DNA from: a virus
Lineage: Duplodnaviria > Heunggongvirae > Uroviricota > Caudoviricetes
Reading direction: 5' to 3' (one strand)
DNA length: 62,444 nt
Virus record (IMG/VR): IMGVR_UViG_3300009702_000014
Coordinates: 1 to 62,444 of that record
This document shows, piece after piece, positions 33,660 through 50,701 of this stretch. How positions within the stretch are numbered: position 1 is the stretch's first letter; the number at the start of each line of letters is the position of its first letter. Below the pieces are notes generated by a model. The model saw nothing but the letters and a program-made list of their open reading frames with translations. It was not told the origin of the DNA and did not search any database. The translations under genes were made by a program, and so were the position numbers.

Positions 33660-34270
33660 GCCATTATGAGAATTGGGACTCCGGGTTTGTTAAAAAACCC
33701 CAGGGGGTGTGAGTGGACGGTGAGAATCAGATGAGAATCATGAGAAAACCCTCCAAAATGGGGGTCCTAAATGAGAAAGATTAATTTGATGAAATTCTGA
33801 TGAGAGTCAGATGAGAGAAAATTAAGAATCCACAGGGTTATCCACAGGTTTTATGAGAGTTTGATGAGAGAAATGGCCTTTTATGAGAGTTCTCATGTTT
33901 CTCAGTTAACCATCATGAGAAGATTGGCTTGTGTACTTCTCATATATGAGAGGTTTATGAGAAAGTGGATTATGAGAGGTTTATGAGAGAAATGAGAGAA
34001 AAGAGGGGGTTATATGAGAATTATGAGATTTTCTCGTCGCATTCTCATAAAGCAATTTTTGAGTTACGTCTTGCTATTTTTCTAATTTTAATGTGTGTCT
34101 GTGACGGCATTTCTCGGCTTTTATGAGGGCCCCGGAAAATTAGCCGGATTGGATTTTATGAGAATATGAGAGAAAAATGAGAGCTTTCTAAGATGAGAAT
34201 AGAGCCTTGCATGTATTCATTGATAGCCCGGATTATGAGAGAAAACGGTGTTCTCATGTTGGATTGCGTC
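33660..34270. repeat. Dense ATGAGA/TCTCAT hexamer array with DnaA box TTATCCACA at 33838-33846 (candidate origin or terminus)
   Basis: Roughly 25 copies by eye, many 9-12 bp apart; no credible ORF. Confidence 0.75.
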
Positions 34271-34510
34271 CCTCACGCAAAAAACGGCCGCACAGAATGG
34301 CCGTGGCGGCCCTACAGCGGACCCCGTGGACTCTAGTGCCCGAAAACGCTCAAGGCCCGTATAGAGGCCCTCAGTGCGTCACAGGAGGTTCAACTATGCA
34401 GGATTCGATGAAAACCCTGCATATAATGAGAGTTTGGTGAGATTCGGCCGCTTGTGACAGTTTTCACGAGCGGGGCCAGAAAAAAGCCCCCTTTCGGGGG
34501 CCTGTGTGTG

Positions 34511-34768
34511 TCAGCTACATGTGGTAATGATGCTCCCGAACGCCATAGCGTCCGACACCGCCTCGATAACCTCCTTATAGCTTGAGTGCTTAGTGTGCGC
34601 GACGGCGCCCGTATCATACCGGTATTCCACAATGTACCGGCCGCGTCCGCCGACCTCCAGGGTATGATAGACGCGCACCGCATGGCCCGTGTCCGTATCA
34701 TGCTTGAAGTCGTGGCCCGTGATGGAGATTTCCCGCTCCAGCATGTAGTTGCTCAGGTCGTAAACCAT
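34511..34768 (-). CDS. Hypothetical early protein (85 aa), leaderless
   Basis: TATATT -10 five nt before ATG; ends at a hairpin terminator near 34483-34500. Confidence 0.65.
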   Translation of the reverse strand: MVYDLSNYMLEREISITGHDFKHDTDTGHAVRVYHTLEVGGRGRYIVEYRYDTGAVAHTKHSSYKEVIEAVSDAMAFGSIITTCS

Positions 34769-35226
34769 GCCTAAATATACCCTGATGGTCTTGGGTTTGT
34801 AAAGAGGGAGAGCCTTACTCGTTTTCTCATGTTTCTCTCATCTTCGGCGGCGTTGCTTTGTGAGATATTTCACTAATAATTATACACACAATGTATAAGT
34901 AGGGCATATTTCCTAGGGCATCGTCGGGAAATATACACAATATAGAAATATTATGCATAATCATCCCACTACTACCTCTAGAGAATGCGTCATAGACGCA
35001 CACAATGGCCCGGAATTGCATACACATAGGCCATACATTCGCCGCTTTGTGACAATTTTCACGAGCGCGGGCCGCGCAAGATGAGAATTATGAGACTAGA
35101 AACCGCGTCACACACGCAAAGAGTGCCTTTGACGTATGTCAGCGCCTAGAAACACCGTCCTGCACGGCATTAAAGTATTAAGGCCCAAGTGGCTTGACGT
35201 GTTGGCAAAGTGTGCTAATATCAGAT

Positions 35227-35565
35227 ATGGCCCTCTACCACAAAGACATTTTTCTCCCGGCTGCCGCCCGTGCGCTCCGCTTCGCAGTTATGCTGCGCTA
35301 CAGCGCCCACGCCCGCCGTGCTGCTACGAATGACCGTTACGGTGATATCAACCTCCCGCGCGTGTTCAATTCCGACAATGCCGAACTGGTAGAGGCAGAA
35401 GTCGAAAACGGCAAAGTTCGGAAGATGGTCTATCGCCAACCGTACAATGGTGAAAATGACCTAGTTATCGTGTTGAACCCCGACGGTTTGGTGCGCACCG
35501 TTTGGCTTAATCAAACTAACGACTCGCACCGCACGCTGGACACAACTAAATACGCCACGGCCTAA
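35227..35565 (+). CDS. Conserved-looking phage protein (112 aa), leaderless; weak DUF4258/BECR-like resemblance
   Basis: TTGACG-16-TAATAT-5-ATG; LRYSAHA...VRTVWLN pattern. Confidence 0.6.
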   Translation: MALYHKDIFLPAAARALRFAVMLRYSAHARRAATNDRYGDINLPRVFNSDNAELVEAEVENGKVRKMVYRQPYNGENDLVIVLNPDGLVRTVWLNQTNDSHRTLDTTKYATA

Positions 35566-35999
35566 ATTAGCGTGAGGGACGGAAAAACTGTCGAGTCCCT
35601 CGGCCTTCCCCGCTTGTGAAAAATTTCACAAGCTCGCGGGCATTCAACCTATCATATTATGTCAGGATGAGAGTAGGATTAGAAAACGGCACCCACATTC
35701 TCATGTTGAATTGCGTCACAGACACGAAAAACGGACCTACAGGATGGCCGTTAACAGGGGTCTAACGACTTCCAAGGGTACTAATACCAGAAACTCGGCA
35801 AACGCCGTAAAACGCCTCTCAGCACGTCCTAGGGGCATTCTACTATACAGAAAATAATGTAAACAACGTATAAATGGCGTTGCCGAATTGTGACATTTAC
35901 CACTGACATTTAGCTCCAGATACCCTACAAAATTAGGCTTGTGAAAAGATTCACAAGCCGAGGCCGCCGAATTATGAGAAAATCATTAAGGTTTACGTC

Positions 36000-36034
36000 T
36001 TGACAACCAAGAGTCGCTGTAGTATCCTCAGGTA
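36000..36034 (+). promoter_or_regulatory. Representative sigma70-type leaderless promoter (TTGACA-17-TATCCT-5-ATG); same architecture precedes starts at 36529, 36812, 37097, 37806, 38351, 39313, 40076
   Basis: -35/-10 hexamers with 16-17 bp spacers, ATG 5-6 nt after -10, no SD. Confidence 0.8.
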
Positions 36035-36264
36035 TGCCCTACTTCGATGTAGTTGTCACGGTATGCGGACCCGAAGGCGACCCCGACGATTGGTTTGACG
36101 GCGTGGTATATATCGACCACGACAACGCACCTACGGACACCGAACTCACGTTGGCGGCACGCGACGAATACGGCAACACGGTGTATTCCGCCGAACGTAT
36201 CTACCTCGCAGACACCAACAACCTCGGAACGGCTCACCCGAACTATGACAGCATGGCAGACTAG
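36034..36264 (+). CDS. Acidic hypothetical early protein (76 aa)
   Basis: Leaderless promoter; followed by hairpin and palindrome. Confidence 0.7.
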   Translation: MPYFDVVVTVCGPEGDPDDWFDGVVYIDHDNAPTDTELTLAARDEYGNTVYSAERIYLADTNNLGTAHPNYDSMAD

Positions 36265-36528
36265 GGGGCTTTTGCCCCTTGGTCGCATGTGAAATTTTTC
36301 ACAAGCATGAAAGGGGAAGCTTTCGGCCATTTCCGTCGTGGGGTGGGACGTACTTTGGTTTACTTGCTAGGCCCTTTTTCTGTCTGTAGAATAGCGCGGG
36401 CCGAAATGAGTAACATGAGAAAACACCCCTCTTATCTTAATCAACTAGTGAAAGTTTTCACAAAGTCTCGGCGCGAGAACTTCAACATAAAAGCTTGACA
36501 GACTAGTTTTTATGGTGTAGACTACCTT

Positions 36529-36750
36529 ATGAGCATTTACCGTGTTTACATCCTTGGCTATGAGGCCGCGTTCTGGTACTCTACCGTCACTCATGCCCCG
36601 GCGCTCATGTGGTGGGGACCTACGTCGGGTGTCGCGTGGCCCCTTATTAACCGACTGGCACGTAACCTCGGGGTCCGTAAAGTTAGCCTCGGGAGTTTCG
36701 CTACGAAAGTTCCCCCAAAGTTTCAAGAGCCGGGGCGGCATATCCTCTAA
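36529..36750 (+). CDS. Hypothetical early protein (73 aa)
   Basis: TTGACA-17-TAGACT-5-ATG. Confidence 0.7.
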   Translation: MSIYRVYILGYEAAFWYSTVTHAPALMWWGPTSGVAWPLINRLARNLGVRKVSLGSFATKVPPKFQEPGRHIL

Positions 36751-36811
36751 ATAAAAGTTTGATTAAGGCCCGAGCTATTGACAGACTCGGGCCATTTGTG
36801 TATTATCAGAT

Positions 36812-36991
36812 ATGCCTTTTATACGCCGTACCTCCGCATTCGACGATTTTCATAAGACAGTTAGCGTGGCGACCGAAACAGAGCTTAAGCGTATGCGGGT
36901 CCGTTTGTCACAACAGCACCCACACTATGACGCAAAACTCCGCATGATTGATAAGCGTATTGCCATTTTCCACGGTTTCACAGGTGCTTAG
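36812..36991 (+). CDS. Hypothetical early protein (59 aa, below ORF-track cutoff)
   Basis: TTGACA-17-TATTAT-5-ATG; MPFIRRTSAFDDFHK...FTGA. Confidence 0.65.
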   Translation: MPFIRRTSAFDDFHKTVSVATETELKRMRVRLSQQHPHYDAKLRMIDKRIAIFHGFTGA

Positions 36992-37096
36992 CCCTCTTAG
37001 GAGGGTTGTGGGTTTGTGAAATATTTCACTTGATTATGAGAAAATGATTAAGACTTTTTTGTTGACGGCCCCCGCCCTATGTGCTATGGTTGGGGC

Positions 37097-37381
37097 ATGA
37101 AAAACACTTTCGTTGTGTTCGTCCAGAGGCTTTGTGCTACTAGTGATAGCAACGGCAATCCGCGCCGAGTTTTCCAAGTGGTCCGTGAGGAAACGGCGTC
37201 GAATGTGTATTCCCACCGTGGTATTACCAAAGTAAACGCCCCCGTGGAATACTATGAGGAAGGGTATATTGGCCCGGACGTAGTGCCTCATGACCACGCC
37301 CATACCTACATCAACCTTCCCGACGTGCAAATCAGCGTGTCAGAGTATAACAAGATTCGCAAGCTTGCGAAGCCGAGTTAA
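37097..37381 (+). CDS. Hypothetical early protein (94 aa)
   Basis: TTGACG-17-TATGGT-6-ATG; MKNTFVVFVQRL. Confidence 0.7.
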   Translation: MKNTFVVFVQRLCATSDSNGNPRRVFQVVREETASNVYSHRGITKVNAPVEYYEEGYIGPDVVPHDHAHTYINLPDVQISVSEYNKIRKLAKPS

Positions 37382-37455
37382 TTCTCGGCTCCTGTGTTTG
37401 TGAAATAATTCACAAGTTCTCACAATTCTAATAAAAGGCTATGATATTGTCAGTT

Positions 37456-37695
37456 ATGAGCAAATTCCAAATAAAGCGTGCTTCCCATGCTTCGAATGCC
37501 TCTGTCTGGTACGTGGACATCACTCCGCAAAAGGCGCGGGCGGTCCTCACTCGACTCATGGACCGACGCACACGGTTGCCGCGTGTTGGTAACTTGCTAG
37601 TGCTCCCGACAGTGGGACGTGTTTTTCTCACTAATCGAGGTAATGGATACTCGCTAGAGGGCACTAATCGAGAGGAACTGTCCGGGCTACTTTAA
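37456..37695 (+). CDS. Hypothetical early protein (79 aa)
   Basis: TATGAT -10 upstream; MSKFQIKR. Confidence 0.6.
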   Translation: MSKFQIKRASHASNASVWYVDITPQKARAVLTRLMDRRTRLPRVGNLLVLPTVGRVFLTNRGNGYSLEGTNREELSGLL

Positions 37696-37805
37696 GTAGC
37701 CCCGAAAGAGTTTGTGAAATGTTTCACAAGCCGAGTTCGCCGTTTATGAGAGTTAGATTAAGATTTTAGGGTTGACATACACTCTCAGTATGCTATACTC
37801 AGGAC

Positions 37806-37961
37806 ATGGAAAACAACCTTCCCAAATACGACGGCGGCATGGACACTCTCGTTATCAAGTCGCGTGCGGGCGTACCGTTCGCCACGAAGCGCGTCCACCC
37901 CGACCGCGAAACCCCGAAGTACCCCGAAGGCGCGAGTGTAGAGCGCGTCAAGGCCAAGTGA
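37806..37961 (+). CDS. Hypothetical early protein (51 aa)
   Basis: TTGACA-16-TATACT-6-ATG; MENNLPKYDGG. Confidence 0.65.
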   Translation: MENNLPKYDGGMDTLVIKSRAGVPFATKRVHPDRETPKYPEGASVERVKAK

Positions 37962-38050
37962 AAACTTGGCTTGTCTGTTTGTGAAATCCTTCACGAGTTC
38001 TCACAATTCCCATACTCAGAGTGATATAGTGTTTTTGAAAGGGGCACTAA

Positions 38051-38212
38051 ATGACGTTTAAAGCTTGGATGAAAAAGGTGGATGCCGCCGTATCAGTTAC
38101 CGCAGGACTAAGCGTTTACGATTTGCCAGACATGCCTTTCTATGACATGTTTAACGACGACTATACTCCCGAAGAGGCCGCCGAGGAAACACTCATGAAC
38201 GCGGGGTGGTAA
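38051..38212 (+). CDS. Small phage protein, DUF5419-like (53 aa)
   Basis: MTFKAWMKKVD...GLSVYDLPD..FYDMF.DDYTPEEAA pattern. Confidence 0.55.
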   Translation: MTFKAWMKKVDAAVSVTAGLSVYDLPDMPFYDMFNDDYTPEEAAEETLMNAGW

Positions 38213-38350
38213 ACCCACCCTGTGTCTTTGTGAAATATTTCACGAGCTTAATCCATCCCACTAACAATAACCTACATTTAAATGAGTATAGTGAGAGTTT
38301 CATTAAGGATACGGGCTTGACAGTCTGGCACATAGAGAGTACACTAGGTC

Positions 38351-39008
38351 ATGACAGTCAACGGAAAGTTCCTTATCACCAAAGAATTTCGCGGCTTTCT
38401 TACTGTGCTTCGTAATCTCCAAGACAGGACGGGATATGAAACCCGCACCGTTTGGTCCGACTGGTACGCCCGTAAGCAATACGATGTTCAGGAATGCTTC
38501 GAAAAGGGCATGACTCCGCAAGAGACATTTTTGCAGGTTGGTAGTGAATAAAGCCCTTCGGGGCTTTTTTCATTCCTGCGTTTGTGAATTATTTCACATG
38601 AACATTAAGATTGGCATGTTGTTTTCTCATATTTCTAACATAGCCCGCCGCTATACTTAAACCATGAACGAATACCTGATTACCTTTAAGCGCGGTGCCG
38701 TGGTGGATTATGCCATTGTGATTATCCGACTCCTACGTTTACTCTGCCATCTAGACCTACGTAGTGCAAAGGATATCGTGTGGCCGTATAAGGCAAAAGG
38801 TCAGGCACTCACGGTACGTGTCTCTGCCGCACAGTTGGCCCACTTTACCTCGCACTTGTTGGCACGGGCACAGGCGCGAGGGGTGGGGCTAGATAATGCC
38901 GGGTACTTTACTATCCAAAGCATTGAGCCCGTCCCGGCCGAAACTGCAGTGAATCTGGTAAAGCTCGGCCTCAGCGAGGTAGAAGCGCCCACTACCGATT
39001 TTTACTGA
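38351..39008 (+). CDS. Two leaderless early proteins (38351-38551, 38664-39008)
   Basis: Each has its own promoter and a GCCCTTCGGGGC terminator hairpin. Confidence 0.65.
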
Positions 39009-39312
39009 GCCCTTCGGGGCTCTTTCAACTTGTGGGCTTGTGAATTATTTCACAAGCAAAATAGCGCCCCTGTAGGTTAGGGGCGCTTGTTCATTAATTA
39101 AGGTAAACTTTTTTATTCTAACCATTGTGAGTTAAGAAATTAGGCGCATTAGCCTCGCCGCATAACTTTGCTCCCCTCGTTTGACTAGGTGGCTTCGATG
39201 GGTCTGTCCCATCGCCTACGTTCCTAGAGTACACCTACCAAAAGTGAGAGTTATGAGAGTTAGATTAAGATTCAGGGGTTGACAGCCTTAGCAGCGTGGT
39301 TTATAGTAAGTC

Positions 39313-39769
39313 ATGGTTCTCACCACGGCAATTGTCCTTGTTATCATGCTTGTTTTAATCCCGTGGGTGTTTCGTTGGGAGTAACTATGGAACAGCCTAT
39401 CCGTCGGGAAACCTATACGTATGGGTATCTCGACTTGTACGAGAACAGGATTGTAGTTTGCCCCGCGTCCTACGCGACAGAGGAACAGATAGAGTCGTTA
39501 ATGGAAGATGCTAGAACATATGTGGCACTTGCTACAAAACCGGTCAGGATTCACGTTTCTCACAAAGATAAGGAATAGGATAAGTCATGAGCGTTTTCAT
39601 TTTCGAGGAAATGATACCCTATGGTGTAAGGTGCTATGTGGTAGTGGCGGAGACGCGTGAGCAAGCATGGGCACACCTCAGTTCCGGGGATATGCCATCA
39701 CACGGTTGGACAGTAGCGGAAATTCCGATAGAAGATGGGGCAGTATATGAGACAATCTGGAGCGAGTGA
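39313..39769 (+). CDS. Three small ORFs: 23-aa hydrophobic peptide (39313-39384), 39387-39578, 39587-39769
   Basis: TTGACA-17-TATAGT-5-ATG followed by coupled ORFs. Confidence 0.55.
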
Positions 39770-39817
39770 AAACTCGCCCCTGCCCTTGTGAAATTTTTCA
39801 CAAGGCTGTCTCCACCC

Positions 39818-39982
39818 TCACAAATATGAGGGTGACGTGAGGGCGTCCCATTCTTCCTCGCTCAACTGTTTTTCCTCGCCGTACACCAGCAACGCGCTGT
39901 CAAGTTCCTCTGCGTCATTCGTGAGGAACCCGTTTTCGTCCGCCCACCGTTGAAACTCGTCCTTAATTTCTTCTTTGTTCAT
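39818..39982 (-). CDS. Small acidic protein (54 aa)
   Basis: MNKEEIKDEFQRWADENG...; open frame read by hand. Confidence 0.5.
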   Translation of the reverse strand: MNKEEIKDEFQRWADENGFLTNDAEELDSALLVYGEEKQLSEEEWDALTSPSYL

Positions 39983-40075
39983 GCCTTATACTATCATGCC
40001 AAACATGAGAATGGGTGAGAAAATCATTAAGATTTAGGGCTTGACAGCCTGAGCGGTAGGGAGTAGACTACATGC

Positions 40076-40578
40076 ATGGAACCGACCTACGATATCCAAC
40101 TGCACGTGCAGGCCATTCTCAAGGATGACGACGGCGATAACTTCTACGACGAAACGGACTTCTATTACAAGGGCGTAGAAGTGATGCTGCGCGGGACCGA
40201 GGATATCAGCGACATTACCCTACTTGAAGATTTGCCCTATGTGTTCGATTGCAAGACGGCCCCGAAGATGCGCGATGATGTCGAGAACTTCGTTGGTGAC
40301 GGAGAATTGACTGATTTGTGGGTGGATTTCGATTAGTCCGCTCATTTTCCTCAGTTAGCGAAAGGATACACTAAGCTATGTTCAACTACACGGATGCAAA
40401 AGACTTCCTGCCCGCACTTCCCAACAACAAGGCTATCACAGTTTCCACGGAGTATGACCGCCCCGACAAGCTGACGCCCTTTGTATCCCCCGTGGTACTG
40501 CGTCGGCTCCAAGCTGAGGGGAAGGTTACGGCAAGCAAGCAGAAGGGCTCCTACCTTTATTTGGTACAGAAGAAATGA
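40076..40578 (+). CDS. Two early proteins (40076-40336 very acidic; 40378-40578)
   Basis: TTGACA-17-TAGACT-6-ATG; SD before the second. Confidence 0.65.
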
Positions 40579-40785
40579 TACCGGAACAGCTAAGCACCCT
40601 TCCCAACGTACAGGTGGGGCTTACGGGCTCTCACCTGTACGGGCTGGATACGCCCAACTCTGACGAGGATTATGGCGCTGTATTCCATGAGGGACCGGAA
40701 GTTTGATAAGCTTCCTACCAATGAGAGATTAAAGCTTGCTGCTAGCGACTACTTTCTGAGGTTGTTTGAAGTCGCGGCCTTGTGA
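40575..40785 (+). pseudogene. Relic of a Pol-beta-superfamily nucleotidyltransferase (PF10127-like)
   Basis: GLTGSHLYGLDTPNSDEDY motif then stop after 43 aa; a short helical tail in another frame. Confidence 0.55.
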
Positions 40786-40852
40786 AAAGATTCACTATCT
40801 TCATGAAGGTTATTTCTCATGTTTTTCATTTAGCCCCGCCGTATCATAAAGC

Positions 40853-41311
40853 ATGAACGCGAAGGGGATAATCCAAGGTGTGAGATTTGCCCGTAAAATA
40901 CTTCCTGTCCTTGCCGAGGATTTGGGGCTTCCTACTGATAAAGTGTCCCTTAAGATTGTGTCTAATGGTGGTTCTCAGGCGGTTCGGGCTTCTACTGAGT
41001 ACGGCTACCGTTATCGTGTTGAGTTAGACTTCAATCAGACTAGGGATTTGCGGGACGTGTTGTTTATCTTGGCTCACGAGTTGCGGCATATCTGGCAATT
41101 CATAAATGGTGTAAATCTTGGTAGCAAAGAAGCACGAGCGGCGACGAAGGGTAAGCCTGTCCTGTATCGTGGTATGCAAGACGAGAAAGACGCCGACGAG
41201 TATGCCCTCATGATGGAGCGGAGCTACAAGTACACAAATACCCGTATAAATCCCGACGCCCATAGTCTGTACATTCACGTCAAGATTGCACGGCACACGC
41301 TCGGTTTCTAA
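40853..41311 (+). CDS. HExxH zinc metallopeptidase-like protein (ImmA/IrrE-like)
   Basis: ILAHELRHIWQ plus EKDADEYA. Confidence 0.7.
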   Translation: MNAKGIIQGVRFARKILPVLAEDLGLPTDKVSLKIVSNGGSQAVRASTEYGYRYRVELDFNQTRDLRDVLFILAHELRHIWQFINGVNLGSKEARAATKGKPVLYRGMQDEKDADEYALMMERSYKYTNTRINPDAHSLYIHVKIARHTLGF

Positions 41312-41344
41312 TCATTCTCATAAAAGAAACGGATAATATAGGTC

Positions 41345-42701
41345 ATGAGCGAAACCAAGGAAGTTCCCACTGTTGACAACCTCCACGGGCATTATATTTC
41401 CCTGGCGATGATTATGTACGGCGGCGGTTTCATGAAGCACCTTGGGGAAGCTTTGGCAGTGGCCGACGCTCATAACTACCGGCTCATTGTTGCTACCTGG
41501 AGGCTGCAAATCAATCACTGTATCGAGATTTGGTGGAGACGGAACGGGTGCCAAATGAACCAAAGCGACATTAGGAAGGATTTGGGATAGCAAAAATGCC
41601 GGGAATCAAATCCCGGCGTTCTTTTGTGAAAACTTTCACGATTTTTCTTGTGGGCTTGTGAAATAATTCACGAGCAGTAAAAAGGGGCTTTCTTCCTTTT
41701 CCGCGTCCCGTTCCGCGTACTTGGGTTTACTCGCCCGGACTTGACACATATTAGCACATACTATTGAGCCTGTCAATCACTCCCAGCCACGGACAGCACG
41801 GCACGGTTGGTATTTTGACTCAGCAAACGTGCACCGCCCAAATCCCAGTAAGTCCCGAAGTGAGCGCCAAGTGTACGGAGGCTAGGCCATTCCCCATCCT
41901 CCGACAGAAGGTGAAGGTAGTACTTAGTGAAGCCGTAGTAATTCTCGATACGCTCCACCACAATGTCATGACCGTTGATATTCTCTTGCCTATGAGGGTT
42001 AGACACAAACTCTGGCTTCATGACTTACTATAGAACGGGGCTAAATGAGAATGATGAACTCACTCCTCTTCATCCAAAAATCCCATTAGCAAGTCCTCTT
42101 CCCCATCCAAAAAGCTCAGCAAGTCGGGAAGCAAATCCCTTGTGACAATGAAATCCAACACAAGGAGAAGCAAGGATGCACTCTTCCGATACCTGTTTAG
42201 AATCTCTTGTTCGGTCATATGTAGAGAGTATCCTCTTAGTAGATGAAAAACATTAGAGAAATTCTCTCACAATTCTTATATAGCCCCGCGCTAAACTACG
42301 TACATGCCTAAGGAATGGTTGTCCTCAAAGCCCGACAAATACAACGACAATCCCCGTGCGGAATACGTTATCCTGTATCGCACGGAGGACGTTGGAGAGT
42401 GCAAGATGCAAGTGTCTAAGGAGCTGCTTATGGACATGGTTGCTACGATTCTCATGGCGAGCGGGGAAGTTACCGCCGTCATGCCCCGGTACTAAATATG
42501 ACTCGACGTGAAAAGCTGGAATACTTTGCCGCCATCATCTATGGTCACATTCTCCAAAGTGAGGATGATGTAAGCAATGGTCGCTATAGTTGTGATGAGG
42601 ACCGTGCTGGAGTAGCGGTGTCGGGAGCAGTTGCCGTTATTGACGCTGTAAACTCCCTTCCTTTCGATGTATTACATTGTAACAACATTCCAAACTCTTA
42701 A
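41345..42701. CDS. Five small hypothetical genes (+41345-41590, -41773-42021, -42060-42218, +42304-42495, +42498-42701)
   Basis: Each has a promoter-proximal or coupled start. Confidence 0.5.
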
Positions 42702-42710
42702 GGAGAAAGC

Positions 42711-43475
42711 ATGAGTAACTATATCACAGCATACAAAGCTGTGCGGCTGGACATGACCAGCCATTATGACCGCAAGACGCCCTGGGAGCCCGGCGTGCCG
42801 GTGCGCGTGGAGAATCCCGACTCGCCCACCGAGAATGGGTGTGGGCGCGGCATCCACGTTAGCCGCACGCTGCTCGGCACCATCAGGCACCAGTTCAGCC
42901 CGAGCGAGTACCTGACGGTCGAGGTAGACTCCAGGCACATCATCCAGGAGACCGAGAAACTGAGGGTGTCGGAATGCCTGCCCGTGCGGGTGCTCTCCGC
43001 GGAAGAACAGGATGCGCTTGCCGGGTTCCGGTTGTGGGAGGCGAATCACCCCGTCAACCCGTTGCTGGTGGAGGGCGCGGAATTGCCGGACGAGGACTTG
43101 CGGCGCCTACTCGCAGATTGGGCCTCGGTCCGGGGCTCGGACTTGGTCTGGGCCTCAGTCCGGGGCTCGGACTTGGTCTGGGACTTGGTCTGGGGCTCGG
43201 TCGGGGCCTCGGTCTGGGACTTGGTCCGCGACTTGGTCCGCGACTTGGTCCGCGACTTGGCTTTTACCTCGGTCCGGGACTCGGCCTGGGCTTACGCTTG
43301 CTCGCTATTCCCCAATGTCACGTCCTGGAGGGGAACCGACCGCGAGCACCCGTGGGACAGCCTACGCGCCCTATGGCTCGCCGGGTACGTACCCTCGCTC
43401 GACGGAACTACATGGAGGCTGCACCGAGGGCCGGAGGCTAAAGTGGTGCTGAGCGTGCCAGCGACACTTCAATGA
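42711..43475 (+). CDS. Phage protein with (W/R)(A/D)(S/L)V tetrapeptide repeats (254 aa)
   Basis: SD AAGGAG; CGRGIHVS N-domain; 12-nt repeat tract at ~43120-43290. Confidence 0.7.
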
Positions 43476-43706
43476 CGAGATTATCAATCCTACTTCCTTG
43501 GATAAAGTCTAATCCTTCTCATAGAAGGGCCTGATAGGATAAAGACATGGGAAAGACAAAGCGGTACCACGTTGGCACAATCGAACCGGATTCAACCTGC
43601 CGAAGGGGCATGAATTTGGTAAGGGGCGCGGAACTCGCATCCTTAGGGATAAGCGTTCCAAGCGGGGCAAGGAACGTCAGGCTATCAAAAACGAGTTGAG
43701 AGGTTA

Positions 43707-43913
43707 TTGATGGAAAAGAGGACACCGATGCCTGACCTCGACAAGCTGGAGCGTCTTGCACTGAAGGTCCGGGAAGTTGAGAATCTTCCTAAGACGCGAG
43801 AAAACGACCCTATGCGCTTTGCCGCATGGCGTGCCCTGTACACATCCTTGGACGCCGACGTGGTACTGGCCCTCATTCGGCGCATCCGAGAACAAGGCCG
43901 AGTAATCGCCTAG
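43707..43913 (+). CDS. Hypothetical protein (68 aa)
   Basis: Helical ORF, PDLDKLERLA...VVLALIRRIRE. Confidence 0.55.
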   Translation: MMEKRTPMPDLDKLERLALKVREVENLPKTRENDPMRFAAWRALYTSLDADVVLALIRRIREQGRVIA

Positions 43914-44259
43914 ATGGATACCTTTTTCACCGACACGATGCACGAACTACTTTCGGAGAAGTGACTGTATGGTGTGGCGCCTGCTCGTCATTGACAGCGT
44001 GGCGTTCTGGGCTTGTGAAAAGTTTCACAAAGAAATCCCCAGGCTCTAGAACCTGGGGTGTGGCCCAAGAAACAACAGGGTCATGACTCCCTGAGGGGCC
44101 AGAGCGGAGGTTTCCCGGATGTGGGCTGAGGGTGCGACCCTAACTCCCGTCCGCTCATGAACCAAGTATAGCAGTTCCAGGATGAGAGGCATGAGAGTAC
44201 TTCCCTCATCATTTTCATAAAGCCCCGCGCTATTATTAGTCAAGAAAGGGAGGCACCAA

Positions 44260-44601
44260 ATGTCCCGTTACGCGCAAATCCTGGAAACCGGTGACGTGAA
44301 TATTCTCAACCTGGAAACTCTGGAGGACTTGCAGGGCGCTGTCGGTGGGTTTATCGAGGCGATTCCAGTGCAGCCGGGTGCTTCCCTCCCTCAGACTCTT
44401 ACCGTGTACGGTAATGAGGAAGGTCGGCTAATTGGCATGGATATCAATGTCCTTGCTACTCGGGTATTGAACTTCCCTTACCCGCTCGTGGGGCCGGTTA
44501 TCATCGGTGGGCCGTTGAACGACGACGGCGAAAGCACAAACCTCCCTGCCTCTTGGGCTAACTACCTTCAAAGCCTCTCTGTGCAGATTGTTGTGCTCTA
44601 A
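44260..44601 (+). CDS. DUF3846 family protein
   Basis: LEDLQGAVGGFIE...YGNEEGRL...N.LAT...LVGPVII. Confidence 0.8.
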   Translation: MSRYAQILETGDVNILNLETLEDLQGAVGGFIEAIPVQPGASLPQTLTVYGNEEGRLIGMDINVLATRVLNFPYPLVGPVIIGGPLNDDGESTNLPASWANYLQSLSVQIVVL

Positions 44602-44634
44602 CACTTCTCATTCCAGGAAGGGATACCATAAGTC

Positions 44635-44802
44635 ATGGACGACTTCGATATCGGCCCGCAGATTGATGAGCACCTTGAAGCAGAGTACGAGGGCGAATGG
44701 GAGGATGATTTTCCTCTCTACCTGGAATACCCCGGTGAGGAACCCATGTTTCAACACTCGGATGGATTCGGGTACAACTTCGAGGAAGAATGGGGCGAGT
44801 GA
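44635..44802 (+). CDS. Extremely acidic 55-aa protein (not in ORF track)
   Basis: MDDFDIGPQIDEHLEAEYEGEWEDDF...; 20 D/E and no K/R. Confidence 0.6.
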   Translation: MDDFDIGPQIDEHLEAEYEGEWEDDFPLYLEYPGEEPMFQHSDGFGYNFEEEWGE

Positions 44803-44867
44803 AAACTCGCCTTGTCTCTTTGTGAAAAGTTTCACAAGACAAAATAAAAGGCCACTTTCGTAGCCCT

Positions 44868-45215
44868 CTAGTAACGTTGACTGTATCTGATATTAGGCCG
44901 TCCAGTTTTCGAGTCAAGCATGTCGCATTCTACGCGGTAACTAAAATCTGCTCCGAAGTCCCCCTCACTCGGAATAACACCAACACTCAGAAAATCCATC
45001 TGTGCCGCATTCTCGTGCCGGTATTCATTCGCCAGAAAGACAACGAATTTTGCCGCGAGGTAAGGGGCGTCGGAGAAGCGCGTGTCTCCCGTTTCCGCCT
45101 CTACCGTGTCAAAGAATCGTTCAAACAAGGGAAGCATTTCCTCAGGGTAGCCGTCCCAGTGCTTATAGATTCGCCCACCGTCGGGGCCAAACGTAACCGT
45201 ACAGGGAGTAGACAT
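44868..45215 (-). CDS. Phage protein with Y.HWDGYP motif (115 aa)
   Basis: IYKHWDGYPE motif; SD GAAAGGGG. Confidence 0.65.
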   Translation of the reverse strand: MSTPCTVTFGPDGGRIYKHWDGYPEEMLPLFERFFDTVEAETGDTRFSDAPYLAAKFVVFLANEYRHENAAQMDFLSVGVIPSEGDFGADFSYRVECDMLDSKTGRPNIRYSQRY

Positions 45216-45579
45216 TGTTTCCCCTTTCGTTGCTTAAGTATAGGCCAGACAACTATGAGGATTATGAGCCAGGGGTGGCTTGTGAATTTTTTCACAAACC
45301 TCTCCGGGCTTGCACCTTAACACAAGCCCGGATTAAAATTGTCAGCCCACACGGCGCTTGAGAACGACCGCTCCGTTGTTGGTTGTATGAGTAGTGTGAG
45401 GGTAGGAAAGCTTCTCGATGCGGCCCGAAGGCGGAAGGAACGTACCATCCGGGCGGCGATTCTGAGCGACCGTATTGATTCGTCCGTCGGAAACGTGGAA
45501 CGCAATATGAGGCTTGTTCAGTCGGAACATTTTTCCTTCCTTTCGATTCTTAGTTTAGCCCGAGAATTTATGAGAAGGG

Positions 45580-45783
45580 TTAGAAGGCATGCTCCGGTCG
45601 GTAGTATTCTGCCATATCTTCAGGAATCTCATTATCCCTAAGGTATTGTTCGGCCTCTTTCTGGTCACCCCGGAAGTAGGCGTGGTAGCCGTTTCTATCA
45701 CAAATATGATAGTGGCCTTTCTTTAGCTTTTCGATAAACCCCACCGGGTTCTTATCCTTATCATAAACGGTGTGCGGAATCAT
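45580..45783 (-). CDS. Hypothetical protein (67 aa)
   Basis: Promoter-proximal start. Confidence 0.55.
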   Translation of the reverse strand: MIPHTVYDKDKNPVGFIEKLKKGHYHICDRNGYHAYFRGDQKEAEQYLRDNEIPEDMAEYYRPEHAF

Positions 45784-45817
45784 GTTTATATCCTATTCTA
45801 TAGATGTATGAGAAGGA

Positions 45818-46295
45818 TTAGTAATTCTGCTGTACCGTTACAGGCATATGGCACTTTACACAGATACCCCCGCGATACCTAGCTGTAAGGCGGTTAATGT
45901 ACCCAAGGATTCCATGATTAGGACATACAACAGTATATTTAGCTGTAGCAGCACGTACCTCTTTAACTAAGTCCTTGGGCACGCTTTCCGCTGTGCGGTG
46001 AGGGTCGGCCCCGATACGCCGACATGCTTGCTTCCAAACTGCATCATGGCCGTGTCCTGGAGTCAGGGCGTGGGCAATCTCGTGCAGAACGGTGTCTCTA
46101 ACTTGCTCCTCGGGAAGATATTTAACCCAAACGGTAGAGGCGGATGCGGGCGGGCACTAAATCCCCCGCCCCGTCGTACCTGTAGGAACAGTCCCCAAGG
46201 GCACCTTTGCGCGACGAGTATTCGAATTTAACGTACCCCAAACCGTGCTCGTTCATAAGCTTACGGGCGAGTTTCGCTGCATCCGTCTTTTTCAT
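45818..46295 (-). pseudogene. SprT-like zinc metalloprotease, frameshifted near 46136 (absent from ORF track)
   Basis: N-part MKKTDAAKLARKLMNEHGL..GALGDC..RIRL; C-part VRDTVLHEIAHALTPGHGHDAVWK...CPNH...CVKC in another frame. Confidence 0.75.
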
Positions 46296-46372
46296 GTCTC
46301 TAGGATAGACTTTCTTTTTATGAGATTTATTAGTCTCACAATTCTTAGAATCCCCGCGCCTATACTTAATCC

Positions 46373-47068
46373 ATGAACGAGGGACTGAGAGTTACCCTAA
46401 AGCCGACCGGCAATAAAAAGCTCGTGGGGGACAATAAGCGTCTGCCCTTCTACGCTACCTATCGTGAGGTTGGTATGTCTTGTCCTAGCACGTGCGCCCT
46501 GTTGAACAACGGGTGCTATGCACAGTTTGGACATGTTGCAATCCAAATGCACGGGCAGTATTCCGATAATGACGGCGACATTTTCCTCCGGGAATTGAAC
46601 CGCATTCCTCAGGGTGCCGCACTCCGGCTGCACGTGTCCGGGGACGTTATGCGGGACGGTGGCAAGGACGGTAGCAACGTCCTGGATGTTGAATACCTGA
46701 ATGCACTAATCGAAGGTGCTAAGCGGCGTCCTGACGTTAGCATGTACGGGTACACTCACGCATGGCGGCAAATCGACCGTAACGAATTCGTGTTTCCCTC
46801 CAACCTGACGTTGAATGCGTCGTGTGACACGCAAGAGGACGTGGCAGAGGCGCGGGCAGCGGGCTGGGATACCACCACGGTTGTTCCGGCCGAGACTCCA
46901 GGCAAGCGTTACGGGGACACGGTGGTATGCCAGAATAAGACGACGGGCCTCACGTGTGACAAGTGCCGCCTGTGCTTCAAGTCTAACCGCTCCCTCACGG
47001 TTGCGTTCAAGGCCCACGGGGTTAGCAAGCGTAAGGTGTCAAAAAGGGCTAGCCTACCTACCGCATGA
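46373..47068 (+). CDS. Gp88-like Cys-rich (radical-SAM-related) protein (231 aa)
   Basis: SCPSTC..GCYA, LRLHVSGD, YGYTH, NASCDT, TCDKCRLC. Confidence 0.7.
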   Translation: MNEGLRVTLKPTGNKKLVGDNKRLPFYATYREVGMSCPSTCALLNNGCYAQFGHVAIQMHGQYSDNDGDIFLRELNRIPQGAALRLHVSGDVMRDGGKDGSNVLDVEYLNALIEGAKRRPDVSMYGYTHAWRQIDRNEFVFPSNLTLNASCDTQEDVAEARAAGWDTTTVVPAETPGKRYGDTVVCQNKTTGLTCDKCRLCFKSNRSLTVAFKAHGVSKRKVSKRASLPTA

Positions 47069-47139
47069 ACAAGCCTACTCTCATAAACCTCACGAAGCTC
47101 TAGGGTATAATACTAACATAGGAAAGGAGCGGGAAAATA

Positions 47140-47367
47140 ATGACTAACGTCAGAGAAAACCGCCGAATCCTTAAGGAAGCACAGAGTCAAGGTGTGATTG
47201 TCCGGTTTGTGTACCATACGAAGAGCACGGGGGAACTTGTGCCGCGTGTTGGTACCGTCCGGGAGTTCACCGACGAGAATCATGTTGTCCTGAATGACTT
47301 GGGTCACGACGGCGCGATTCGGAGTGCAATCCTTGACAGGATTCATGGTAGCGTCCGAATCGGATAA
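47140..47367 (+). CDS. WYL-like small domain protein
   Basis: VRFVYHTKSTGE..PR...RSAILDRI resembles the WYL pattern. Confidence 0.5.
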   Translation: MTNVRENRRILKEAQSQGVIVRFVYHTKSTGELVPRVGTVREFTDENHVVLNDLGHDGAIRSAILDRIHGSVRIG

Positions 47368-47505
47368 TCTACCACAACTTGCCACTTATAAGAAGTGGCT
47401 CAGGGCCTTGTGAAATATTTCACGAGGTCTTTTTTCATGGCCCGGTTAAATTCATAAACCTCATTTAGGAAAAGGCTACAATAAGGAAGTCGAAAGGAGC
47501 TTTAC

Positions 47506-47886
47506 ATGGAACGCAACATTACTTGTAAGGTCTGCGGTGCTGAGTTTTACCACAAGCAGGAAGGACGTGGCCGTCCTCCCACGAAGTGTCCCACGTGCCG
47601 TACTGTCAAGGCGGGTGCTCCGAAGCGGCGTGGCCGTCCCCCGAAGAAGGTTGTGACGGTGGGTACGGGCGAGCACGTCCTGGTCCCTGTGGCCGGTCCT
47701 ATCGAAGCGGGCGATACTGTGGTGCGTCCCCTGGATATGTTCAAGAGCCGAGAAAGTGCCATCAAGTATGCTACCCCGTTCCGGGTTATCGCGGTGACGG
47801 ATACCGAGGCGTTGCTGGATTTCGAAAAGAATGGCGCTATCGTAGCCCTGGAAAAGCTGGTCAAGGTGGCGCTCCAGGGGGCATGA
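47506..47886 (+). CDS. Zinc-ribbon plus AT-hook DNA-binding protein
   Basis: CKVC...GRGRPPTKCPTC...KRRGRPPKK. Confidence 0.65.
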   Translation: MERNITCKVCGAEFYHKQEGRGRPPTKCPTCRTVKAGAPKRRGRPPKKVVTVGTGEHVLVPVAGPIEAGDTVVRPLDMFKSRESAIKYATPFRVIAVTDTEALLDFEKNGAIVALEKLVKVALQGA

Positions 47887-48523
47887 TTAGCCTATCCCCT
47901 TACGTGATGCAAGAGTTGGGTGCCGATGGTACAGTCGTCGGTACCCATATTAAGGTTCGGGTAGTCAACGGCACACGGGCTAGGTTTGTGGGGGATTTTG
48001 AGATTGTAGCAGAAGCGTTGTCTAAGTGTCGCCCGGAAAACGTTCTAGACTTCCTGAGGACTAACAAAGGCCCCTGTGAGGACGTAGAGAAGCAAGGGGC
48101 CATGCTCTGTGGTGTGTATTACAGCCCCGCTCAGTTTTCTCATGAAGAAGCAGGATAGGATGAGTCATGGAATCTTTTGAAGTTACCCAACAGGATGAAG
48201 GTATGGTGGTATCCACGTGGGACGTGTTTGTCCTCGTGTTCACAGGTCGGGGTATCAGCATTTATGACGTTGACGGCCTCCAGACGGAACCTAAGTTGGA
48301 GGTTGCATGGGGATTCGAGTGTGACGGCGTAGAAGATGCCTTTGTCGAGTCCGAACACGGCGAAAGCCGACTCTATATGAGCGCCCTTGTGGATGGTGGT
48401 ACGCTGTCCGTAGAAGTTAAGCGGAGCGACGTTGGCTTTATCATCGACGTGTTCGAGGATGATGAATGCCTGTTCACCTATCCCATTTGGGACTCCGACA
48501 TTGGGATTGACAGTGAGGAATAG
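47883..48523 (+). CDS. Two hypothetical proteins (47883-48158; acidic 48167-48523)
   Basis: Coupled ORFs. Confidence 0.55.
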
Positions 48524-48541
48524 ATAAGGTACACTAACAGT

Positions 48542-49012
48542 ATGAAACGAATAGCCCCTATGGTGTCTCTACTTGCACTTCTCATACTGTTTACGGGATT
48601 GGTGGGGGCCAGGGTGCTTCCCTCACCAATCCCCCAGGTGAGTATTGCACGTAGCCTCACCTTACAGCCAAAGGTGGTGATGCCGTCAATTGTACCCCTG
48701 GCGCGCATCACCGCCTATAATCCAATTCCTAGTCAGACAGACTCTAATCCTGGTGAATCAAGTTGCGGGCCAACGAAACAACACCAGATAGCTCTTAGCC
48801 AAGACTTGTTCTTTCGGCCCGACGGGACTAAGCGTTGTGGTGAGAAGGTGGCACTATATGATGCCACAGGTCACTTGATTGTCAAGGGCGTCGTATGGGA
48901 TACAATGAACAAGAGATATACCCACGCGGCTGATATTCTATTTCCTACCCCTGACACTAGCAAGACCCTAAACTTTGGTGTACATACTGGCTACCTAGTC
49001 TTTCTCAACTAG
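48542..49012 (+). CDS. 3D-domain (RlpA-like) cell-wall protein with signal peptide
   Basis: TM/signal; ITAYNP..SQTD, IALSQD, VWDTMNKRY...DIL. Confidence 0.78.
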   Translation: MKRIAPMVSLLALLILFTGLVGARVLPSPIPQVSIARSLTLQPKVVMPSIVPLARITAYNPIPSQTDSNPGESSCGPTKQHQIALSQDLFFRPDGTKRCGEKVALYDATGHLIVKGVVWDTMNKRYTHAADILFPTPDTSKTLNFGVHTGYLVFLN

Positions 49013-49019
49013 GTAGCCT

Positions 49020-50701
49020 ATGAGACAAGGAGCAATTATGTTGAAGAAAATCCTACTTGGCCTGGTCATTGTACTGTTCATTGCATGTACGTCGACCCTC
49101 ACGATTCTATTACTAACCTTCCCCTCCATTCTACTCCCCGGTATTTTGTTTAGCTTAGCCGTAGTGTTGCTAGTCGGCCTGGTAGTAGCCTCCCTTCCCG
49201 AGCATTTGTGAAAACATTCACAAACTTTCTCGCCGTCTTGTGAAAACTTTCACAAGCCATATTAAAAAATCCCCAGCAATTATGCTGGGGTTTTCTTTTG
49301 TTCTGATAGGAAAGCATCAATGTAGGCCGCGTCTTTGTGGATGATGTCGATAGCCACTTGGTACAAAGCCTGGGACTCGTAGTAGAGTCTATCACAGGCA
49401 GCATTCAGAAGCCGGTACCGATGCCGCCCACGGCGAGAGAAAGGCCATGCCCAATTAATCGTCCTGAGTCTCATGTCATAAAGATGCCCAAGAACTCTAT
49501 CATTTGACTCAGTGTGGCTATGGATAACGTCGAGTGCCGACTGTCGAGCCGCGTGCCGGTCATTCACATGCTTGTGGATATTCCTCACAGAAAGTCCATC
49601 ATCCGCCATAGCTTTCGCACCTTCTTTCGGCCCCGCCAGTCTGTACCAAATCCTCGCATCTGCCAATGGAGTTGTTGAAGAATCTCATAGGGCGCCCGAC
49701 CAAAGGCTACCCAATCTTTATACTTACCCCGATAAAACTTTCTACCGCTCGGGGTAATCAACTCTTCAACCTCTACCCGTATTAATTCCATATCTAGAGT
49801 ATAGCATGGGTAGCATGAGGATTATGAGATTTATTTACTTAGACCCTGAATTTTCTCGCTGCTTGGTTTACACCATCAGGAAATCCCGCGTGGTATCCTC
49901 GCTGGAACACATACCGCAACACCTGTTCCCGACTCCATTCCTCTGGTAATTCGTTGAACTCCTGCAAGTACTTCCTAAATAATTCCCGGATATGCTTCCT
50001 GTGCTCTGTATAGGTCATGGATTACCCCCGTGTTTAGCTGCAAGGTATCCATCCACAAACGCATCTTCATAAACAGAAGGAACCACATCATCAAGAACCA
50101 TTCGAATGAGAATCAAAGACTCTTCATCAAAAGTTTCAGGGGCATGACCATCAAGAAAATCCTCAAACACTTCTTCTACCTGTTCCGTCATTGCTTGCTC
50201 CAATCCACGCGCTTGGCTATTTCCTCCACACCATCCGGGAACCCAAGCTCATAACCCTTGTATTCCCACATTACCTCGGACGGGACATTGCCTCCCTCTT
50301 TAGGAACTTCGCACGAATGTAGAGTCCTTACGTTCTCTGTAGGTCATATCTACATACTACTCCCATGAAGATGAGATATATTAGAAAAACCTTCTATTTC
50401 TAGAAGGTTATTTCTCTACTTCATCAGCAATAGACATCAGTAACTCAGCAAGGCGGCGTGCCTCCGACGGGCGTAGGATTACATCAGAAGTTGATGCCGG
50501 AGTTCCATGAAGCCATTCTAACGCTCGTCTAATACGATGTCGCATACCCCATCTAGCTCCATTATCAGGTGCATTATTCCATACTTCTAAGACTACATCC
50601 CCATCAACTTCATCGTCCTCCCAGCCTTCAACACTTACAGCATGTCCACCGCATTCGCATTGGATAAATGTAAGGCCTCTTAATGGCATACGGGTATTCA
50701 C
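49020..50701. CDS. Cluster of small hypotheticals (+49020-49211 membrane; -49280-49666, -49585-49791, -49839-50018, -50015-50191, -50408-50701)
   Basis: ORF track plus hand reading; no recognisable families. Confidence 0.5.

Follow-up and report, generated by a model that had tools for sequence, protein, structure and literature searches.

Rex is a bacterial repressor that senses the NADH/NAD+ ratio, occupying DNA when NAD+ dominates and leaving it when NADH rises, and phage DNA is known to carry host operators for a few regulators. Here, we describe an array of 24 short palindromes in the early region of a tailed phage (Caudoviricetes; IMG/VR record IMGVR_UViG_3300009702_000014). By their sequence these palindromes are probably operators of the Rex type, and the CRP-family label given to them in a first-pass annotation of this DNA is probably wrong. 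The window, by which we mean the whole stretch analysed, covers positions 1 to 62,444 of a virus record of 201,951 bp that is rated 97% complete. The portal protein of the phage is 49% identical to those of the Thermus phages phiYS40 and TMA, its nearest cultured relatives, with more distant matches in large myoviruses of Bacillota, and we refer to it below as a Thermus-type phage.

The Rex operator of Staphylococcus aureus has the consensus TTGTGAAW4TTCACAA (PMC2883068). The general form of the operator is TTGTGAAN4TTCACAA, and the operator that was crystallised with Rex is AATTGTGAAATATTTCACAATT, with the core TTGTGAAATATTTCACAA (PMC8376106); the structure of a Thermus Rex has likewise been solved on DNA (PMC8836258). 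Among proteins of the CRP family, SdrP of Thermus thermophilus prefers AWTGTRA-N6-TYACAWT, in which the outer A is essential (PMC8465061), and TTHB099 prefers a different half-site, TGTA-n-TCT (PMC7662524). Our search of the literature found no paper that links Rex binding sites to bacteriophages or describes Rex operators on phage genomes.

Number and sequence of the palindromes

The pattern TGTGA-N6-TCAC has 37 strand-matches in the window, which correspond to 24 distinct sites with centres from 34460.5 to 49246.5, compared with 0.41 sites expected from shuffles of the window. All 24 fall within 34.45-49.26 kb, and the rest of the record (about 187 kb) contains zero further sites. The first-pass count of 24 copies is thus confirmed, and the claim that none lies outside 34.4-49.3 kb holds for the entire record: far from being equally common along the genome, the palindrome is present 24 times in 15 kb and nowhere else. 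A whole-genome search that allowed up to two mismatches to TTGTGAA-N4-TTCACAA returned precisely the same 24 sites, and the 13 background matches outside the early region all carry three mismatches. Every palindrome lies in non-coding DNA, in a stretch that is 72% coding and 28% non-coding, with a single one (P23) sharing 6 nt with a stop codon. The early region (34000-50000) has a G+C content of 47-54%, compared with 40-46% in other parts of the window, and the A/T-rich palindromes stand out against this richer background.

Since the search pattern fixes TGTGA and TCAC alone, the remaining positions provide a free test of what kind of operator this is. When the 24 sites were folded into 48 half-sites, T was found at -9 in 45 and at -8 in 37, and A at -3 in 45 and at -2 in 39; position -10 is C or T, and the central four bases are A or T in 84 of 96 cases, matching the W4 form of Bacilli. 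Twelve sites match TTGTGAA-W4-TTCACAA perfectly, eight have one mismatch and four have two, and P8, P12 and P22 each have 16 consecutive bases in common with the crystallised Rex operator (PMC8376106). The A at -9, T at -3 and C at -2 preferred by E. coli CRP, on the other hand, are found in 3, 0 and 0 of the 48 half-sites, the outer A at -10 that SdrP needs is present in only 2, and the strongly conserved A at -3 and -2 plays no role in CRP-type sites. The core TGTGA-N6-TCACA, from which a regulator of the CRP/GlxR/DdrI family had been proposed, is present in the array. However, because the unselected positions -9, -8, -3 and -2 fit TTGTGAA-W4-TTCACAA and not the preferences of E. coli CRP or Thermus SdrP, the palindromes resemble Rex rather than CRP operators and the proposed assignment is probably mistaken.

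Bacterial genomes, one per species, were scanned for the longer, 22-bp version of the phage palindrome, GCTTGTGAA-N4-TTCACAAGC, and yielded at least 120 matches, compared with about 17 expected by chance. Among the matches listed, most are from Actinomycetota, Gemmatimonadota and Verrucomicrobiota and none is from Deinococcota. Twenty genes that start beside these bacterial copies were scanned against Pfam, and 16 belong to the classical Rex regulon: one rex gene, four nuoA genes, four genes for type II NADH dehydrogenase (ndh), one cydA gene (cytochrome bd subunit I) and six genes for multihaem cytochrome c. The product of the neighbouring rex gene contains Put_DNA-bind_N and CoA_binding domains and matches the Thermus Rex structure 3IKT at E 9e-45. 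Because these neighbours are textbook targets of Rex, the 22-bp sequence is, judged by its genomic setting, a working Rex operator in bacteria.

Arrays of the site are also found in other large phages. A scan of IMG/VR for the 18-mer revealed 15 sites on a 176-kb contig, 9 on a 103-kb contig and 5 on each of two others, the array-bearing contigs having GC contents of 27-44%. Among the 271 open reading frames (ORFs) of the Thermus-type phage there is no homologue common to these phages, and very few have any; since the array-bearing phages share the operator alone and no protein, a shared phage-encoded reader is not visible. Among 50,697 cultured phages, the only exact matches in unannotated (intergenic) DNA were in Enterococcus and Aerococcus phages, which are about 134-142 kb long. 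Enterobacterial phages in this collection had zero exact intergenic matches, and the matches in phages of Gram-negative hosts were imperfect or inside genes. Lactobacillales, including the Enterococcus and Aerococcus hosts, have Rex; enterobacteria, to our knowledge, have CRP and lack Rex. As each query was one short site, this host pattern lends modest support to Rex. On the 176-kb contig, a perfect TGTTTCACGTGAAACA palindrome at about 1295-1320 lies beside two of the Rex-type sites, and we take it to be the ParB/Spo0J parS consensus.

Placement of the sites and candidate readers

The setting of each palindrome is given in Table 1. Read on the + strand, approximately 16-18 of the 24 sites follow a strong GC hairpin at a distance of 16 nt or less, usually 8-10 nt, and several others directly precede a strong G+C hairpin. 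All seven convergent junctions of the early region carry a palindrome, and at two of them it is a doublet with a centre-to-centre spacing of 32 bp. Of the five divergent junctions, four carry none, and these consist of two back-to-back promoters with no terminator. Nine palindromes are in junctions without a promoter, only P9, P11 and P21 come within about 10 bp of a promoter element (P9 and P11 abut TCTCAC and P21 is 10 nt away), and none of the 24 overlaps a -35 or -10 box. One rule fits all sites: they occupy untranscribed DNA, either past a terminator and before the next promoter or between convergent terminators. Because the sites lie in untranscribed gaps, a protein bound to them would not be displaced by polymerase. 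At sites followed by a promoter, the distances from site centre to start codon are 49.5, 64.5, 73.5, 74.5, 74.5, 85.5, 86.5, 98.5, 114.5, 171.5 and about 266 bp. Five of these values (74.5, 74.5, 73.5, 85.5 and 86.5) had been taken as evidence of spacing by one helical turn; the values are correct and the phasing is true of these five selected sites, but it fails in the full set.

The array is not shared by the relatives of the phage. The closest one in IMG/VR is a 119-kb fragment whose portal protein is 79% identical (46-62% in other IMG/VR relatives). It has homologues of 16 of the 40 early-region genes, at 35-68% identity, in a locally permuted order and in tighter operons with the same two promoter styles. 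Neither a Rex-like site array nor a repeated palindrome family of any kind was found in phiYS40, in IMG/VR relatives of 157 kb and 194 kb, or in this closest relative (0-2 chance matches). Beyond about 22 bp, each of the 24 sites has flanks of its own, with similar pieces of 14-20 bp in only a few pairs, and the palindromes therefore did not spread inside a larger repeat. The array is thus a gain specific to this lineage and consists of many short sites, near consensus and each embedded on its own, a pattern that indicates selection acting on the sites themselves.

On balance, and with some reserve, we favor a model in which host Rex docks at the 24 Rex-type operators in the untranscribed gaps of the early region; the operators would chiefly be a sink for the protein and perhaps also redox-dependent insulators. 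We envision that a dimer of host Rex would occupy the palindromes that lie past terminators, ahead of promoters and between convergent units, and that these numerous near-consensus sites would sequester the protein as phage DNA accumulates, since each genome copy brings 12 perfect and 8 near-perfect operators, which upon phage replication would exceed in number the few strong ones of the chromosome. Sequestration would then lift repression of the host's NADH-oxidising respiratory genes. As secondary effects, NAD+-dependent occupancy could insulate neighbouring transcription units, and Rex could interfere with the three abutted promoters at P9, P11 and P21. A sink is favored because promoter distances are scattered, some sites lack promoters, doublets are present and the sites are near consensus; since the -35 and -10 boxes are free of sites, the early promoters are unlikely to be repressed in the classical way. 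A local role of some kind is suggested by the even spread, with a single site in each gap, and by the confinement of the array to 15 kb. Rex binding and its consequences are what we infer beyond the observed identity, placement and lineage-specific gain of the motif. The earlier idea that the phage wires its takeover region to a host regulator, or titrates that regulator, survives in part: a repeated host-type operator does run across the early region and possibly titrates its reader, and what probably falls is the naming of CRP.

Several points weigh against this model. Rex operators classically overlap the promoters of metabolic genes; the phage sites do not, and the genes that flank them are phage ORFans. 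A pure sink needs neither confinement to 15 kb nor an even distribution over the gaps, one site in each, and the Rex-type sites of other phages sit in tandem clusters. phiYS40 and two closer relatives are without such sites, and the array is therefore dispensable for the phage group. The TGTGA-N6-TCACA core is common to sites of the CRP/FNR family, and Thermus SdrP tolerates varied flanks. Finally, the presence and the specificity of Rex in the phage's own host are assumed; the nearest cultured relatives of the phage infect Thermus, which has a Rex.

A broader proposal, which we put forward only tentatively, is that unrelated phage lineages independently acquired arrays of host Rex operators to hijack the NADH/NAD+ sensor, either as a decoy that would de-repress the respiratory chain to fuel replication or as a sentinel of NAD+ collapse. 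In the sentinel variant, Rex, which needs NAD+ to stay on DNA, would by its release report the collapse of NAD+ brought about by NAD-degrading abortive-infection defences and would thereby switch phage early transcription. If Rex truly binds, the phage would, at the outset of infection, read or disable the main NADH/NAD+ sensor of the cell, and takeover would be linked to redox and NAD metabolism, which is also a currency of several anti-phage defences. The same solution would then recur in phages of very different hosts, and the array described here stands out as large and dispersed and as belonging to a Thermus-type phage.

We consider it unlikely that a host protein of the CRP/FNR family (CRP, SdrP or a relative) reads the sites, whether by activating early promoters from upstream or by being titrated itself. 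Beyond the shared core, the SdrP motif contains TTGTGA...TCACAA and SdrP binds the E. coli CRP consensus tightly (PMC8465061). Moreover, phage infection induces Thermus cas genes via CRP (PMC3497052), and titration in a Thermus host could blunt this CRP-dependent induction of CRISPR-Cas genes during infection. With reference to the CRP activator positions near -41.5, -61.5, -71.5 and -82.5, sites are centred at -74.5 or about -86 at four early promoters and are scattered at the others, the start sites in this comparison being inferred rather than mapped. The same scatter and the nine promoterless sites speak against a CRP-family activator, as do the half-site counts for E. coli CRP and SdrP given above, the divergent half-site of TTHB099, and the rex, nuo, ndh and cyd genes that adjoin exact bacterial copies of the site.

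A reader encoded by the phage itself would have to be a dimeric DNA-binding protein among the unannotated early ORFs which, in the manner of stoperators, blocks read-through at unit boundaries or shuts off the early genes. The position of the palindromes at unit boundaries, beside terminators, would suit such a protein. The early region holds about 40 genes, which are small, and about 24 of the 40 have no homologue in the closest relative, itself without sites. Of 20 early-region proteins scanned with Pfam, most were assigned no clear function, and PHROGs returned nothing for 10 (6 of them among the 20). Small genes with no recognised family fit a region of the early, host-takeover type, and a reader could hide among them. 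However, no DNA-binding family was detected by Pfam in the 20 proteins or by PHROGs in the 10, and a six-frame search of the whole phage genome found no Rex DNA-binding domain, no HTH_Crp_2 and no cNMP-binding domain. The palindrome is also, letter for letter, a widespread bacterial operator, and the unrelated phages that carry arrays share no protein with the Thermus-type phage. We therefore regard a phage-encoded reader as rather improbable.

The comparison with the closest relative also bears on the suggestion, made in the first-pass annotation, that the palindromes are recombination points that shuffle single-gene cassettes, like the promoter-early stem-loop (PeSL) elements of T4-like phages. 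The palindromes flank nearly every unit, and the comparison of gene order turned out partly as that suggestion would have it, since the two early regions are not syntenic and differ strongly in order and content. Yet identity between sites ends at about 22 bp, with unique flanks, and neither an integrase nor a dedicated recombinase was seen in the early region; long near-identical repeats flanking variable genes, the hallmark of PeSL elements, are likewise absent from it. Because the closest relative has been shuffled in the same way without any palindrome, cassette shuffling in this phage group is independent of them, and we judge a role in recombination very unlikely.

We attach equally little weight to the idea that the palindromes function in RNA or as DNA hairpins, whether as processing sites or as terminators of an auxiliary or bidirectional kind. 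All palindromes adjoin terminators, and 2-3 of the 24, if their GC flanks are included, yield 10-13-bp stems with T runs after them; only these, and only with their flanks, have the G+C-rich stem and U tract of an intrinsic terminator. In the set as a whole, arm mismatches are uncompensated, an A/U-rich stem with a loop of 2-4 nt is weak for a thermophile, most sites have no T tract, and most lie beyond the true terminator and would hence be untranscribed. Three further candidates were rejected: roadblock-assisted termination, by reasoning from geometry (a blocked polymerase would halt inside the hairpin-coding arm before the terminator acts); a larger mobile element resembling a miniature inverted-repeat transposable element (the flanks are unique); and an integron-like arrangement (no integrase, and each unit has its own promoter).

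Promoters and genes of the early region

Table 1. Palindromes and promoter elements of the early region. Positions are those of the window; promoters are from pattern scans.
Feature	Position	Strand	Mismatches to Rex operator	Setting
P1	34452-34469		2	between ORF end 34440 and hairpin 34484-34503, which ends leftward gene 34511-34768
P2	34858-34875		2	centre 98.5 bp upstream of leftward leaderless ATG 34768
P3	35047-35064		2	centre 171.5 bp before ATG 35227; followed by tandem ATGAGA pair
P4	35614-35631		0	begins 10 nt past strong hairpin closing gene 35227-35565
P5	35939-35956		0	centre 86.5 bp before ATG 36034, with ATGAGA-N5-ATTAAG in between
P6	36287-36304		1	after -22 kcal/mol hairpin of gene 36034-36264
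P7	36446-36463		1	centre 74.5 bp before ATG 36529; ATGAGA pair upstream of P7
P8	37014-37031		2	after hairpin of gene 36812-36991; centre 74.5 bp before ATG 37097
P9	37398-37415		0	8 nt after hairpin 37371-37390; abuts TCTCAC promoter element; centre 49.5 bp before ATG 37456
P10	37712-37729		0	after hairpin of gene 37456-37695; centre 85.5 bp before ATG 37806
P11	37979-37996		1	about 7 nt after hairpin 37951-37972; abuts TCTCAC element of Shine-Dalgarno-led gene at 38051
P12	38228-38245		1	first 16 bases are the core of the crystallised Rex operator (PMC8376106); centre 114.5 bp before ATG 38351
P13	38582-38599		1	after hairpin 38550-38567; centre 73.5 bp before ATG 38664 (middle-type promoter)
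P14	39038-39055		0	between hairpin ending gene 38664-39008 and hairpin 39063-39087; promoter-free within 200 bp
P15	39786-39803		0	convergent junction 39587-39769 (+) / 39818-39982 (-); hairpin on each side
P16	40780-40797		1	centre 64.5 bp before ATG 40853 (middle-type promoter)
P17	41624-41641		1	first of doublet; 4 nt after hairpin 41595-41620; convergent junction
P18	41656-41673		1	second of doublet; 32 bp from P17 centre to centre; faces leftward gene 41773-42021
P19	44013-44030		0	after operon 42304-43913, before hairpin 44037-44058
P20	44820-44837		0	after hairpin 44790-44815; convergent junction with leftward gene 44868-45215
P21	45280-45297		0	leftward tandem junction: terminator of 45342-45530 / CTCAT-type promoter of 44868-45215
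P22	47408-47425		1	after operon 46373-47367; with flanks forms 13-bp stem, then T run
P23	49206-49223		0	first of doublet; 6-nt overlap with stop codon of gene 49020-49211
P24	49238-49255		0	second of doublet; 32 bp from P23; followed by bidirectional hairpin 49271-49290; faces leftward gene
Host-type early promoters, nine	35194, 36000, 36495, 36778, 37062, 37772, 38317, 39279, 40041 (35194-40078)	+		
Host-type early promoter, tenth	34766-34803	leftward		
Host-type early promoter, eleventh	48507-48544			
(A/G)TGAGA-N5-ATTAAG, six copies	35974, 37036, 37746, 38291, 39253, 40015 (35974-40031)	+		each 9 bp upstream of TTGACA -35 box
Second promoter class, rightward	37418, 38625, 40815, 42265, 46334	+		TCTCA(C/T), -10 box, ATG
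Second promoter class, leftward	39980-40020, 44156-44196	-		TCTCA(C/T), -10 box, ATG

The ten early promoters in 34.7-40.1 kb consist of a -35 box TTGAC(A/G), a spacer of 16-18 bp, which is 16-17 bp in the nine rightward promoters, and a -10 box followed by 5-6 nt to the ATG. Because so short a distance separates the -10 box from the ATG, their transcripts are expected to be leaderless, in agreement with the leaderless layout described in the first-pass annotation; a -10 box directly next to the reading frame has been reported as common in Deinococcus-Thermus (PMC12340547). In the recurring unit proposed there, a palindrome is followed by ATGAGA-N5-ATTAAG and a promoter; four of the six copies of the element come directly after a palindrome.

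The second promoter class has one or two copies of TCTCA(T/C) about 12-21 bp before the -10 box, or 19-22 bp before it in the promoters of Table 1, then the ATG, and often a CCCCGCGC block immediately before the -10 box. It extends beyond the early region (genome positions 60347, 70846, 79272 and 90405), and TCTCAY hexamers are enriched in 30-50 kb, with 78 of the genome total of 273. The ATGAGA hexamer is the reverse complement of the TCTCAT half-site of this class, and these ATGAGA/TCTCA(T/C) motifs belong to a reader different from that of the palindromes. Directly upstream of P1, a non-coding block at 33660-34270 (33.66-34.26 kb) contains 22 ATGAGA and 4 TCTCAT hexamers together with a perfect DnaA box, TTATCCACA, at 33838; this block might serve as an origin of replication, or it might soak up the protein that reads the second promoter class.

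Between P6 and P7 (36305-36445) lies a leftward CTCAT-type promoter, with tandem half-sites, a 12-bp spacing and TATTCT, after which there is no start codon. Its product may be a small non-coding RNA, about 80-100 nt long; Rfam reported no RNA family in 33-50.5 kb, this interval included. The A/T-rich spacer between P2 and P3 (34876-35046; centres 189 bp apart) contains four ACACA-containing repeats and no convincing gene. The terminators at 37951-37972, 39760-39785 and 44790-44815 share a design in which the TGA stop codon lies in the loop of the hairpin ...GTGAAAAC....

Among the early proteins, the product of 47506-47886 has an N-terminal zinc ribbon followed by two AT-hook-like motifs of the RGRP type and is possibly a minor-groove binder of A/T-rich DNA; it has a homologue in the closest relative, which has no palindromes. 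The product of 40853-41311 has an HExxH motif and weakly matches the putative metallopeptidase family DUF6782 (E 9e-5). A metagenome scan with one early protein gave a best identity of 47%, an exact-protein look-up returned zero records, and 7.9 kb of the early region, compared as DNA with the cultured-phage collection, had no match. The window also encodes 17 tRNAs, a CCA-adding enzyme and a family A DNA polymerase, whose gene (14569-16428) is interrupted by an intein (Intein_splicing, E 3e-16).

Comparison with known systems

The closest likeness is to the Rex operators, also called ROP or Rex boxes. The phage sites are the same 18-bp inverted repeat, TTGTGAA-N4-TTCACAA, with an A/T-rich centre. 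They differ in number and setting, with 24 copies in 15 kb that lie beside ORFans, after terminators and in promoterless gaps and not over promoters. With the sites of the CRP/FNR family (E. coli CRP; CRP, SdrP and TTHB099 of T. thermophilus; DdrI of Deinococcus) they have in common the TGTGA-N6-TCACA core and dyad symmetry, but they depart from these in their flank and spacer preferences and in lacking a fixed class I or class II position.

In its overall build the region resembles other early regions. The host-takeover modules of phage SPO1 and the PeSL cassettes of T4-like phages are made up of numerous small early genes that each have a strong host-type promoter and a terminator of their own, and the content of these regions varies among relatives. 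The early region described here is assembled in the same way from small genes, promoters and terminators. The repeat is what sets it apart from PeSL cassettes, being an operator of 18-22 bp and not a long repeat of promoter plus stem-loop.

The layout of the array finds its nearest parallel in the stoperators of mycobacteriophage L5, which are present in about two dozen copies in short intergenic gaps at unit boundaries, are asymmetric and orientation-dependent, and are read by the phage's own repressor. Dispersed copies of one operator at unit boundaries are common to both phages. Whereas the stoperators are asymmetric and serve the repressor that L5 itself encodes, the sites of the Thermus-type phage are palindromic and no recognisable reader is encoded alongside them. 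By the resemblance of its sites to Rex operators, the array would represent a further case of host operators carried on phage DNA.

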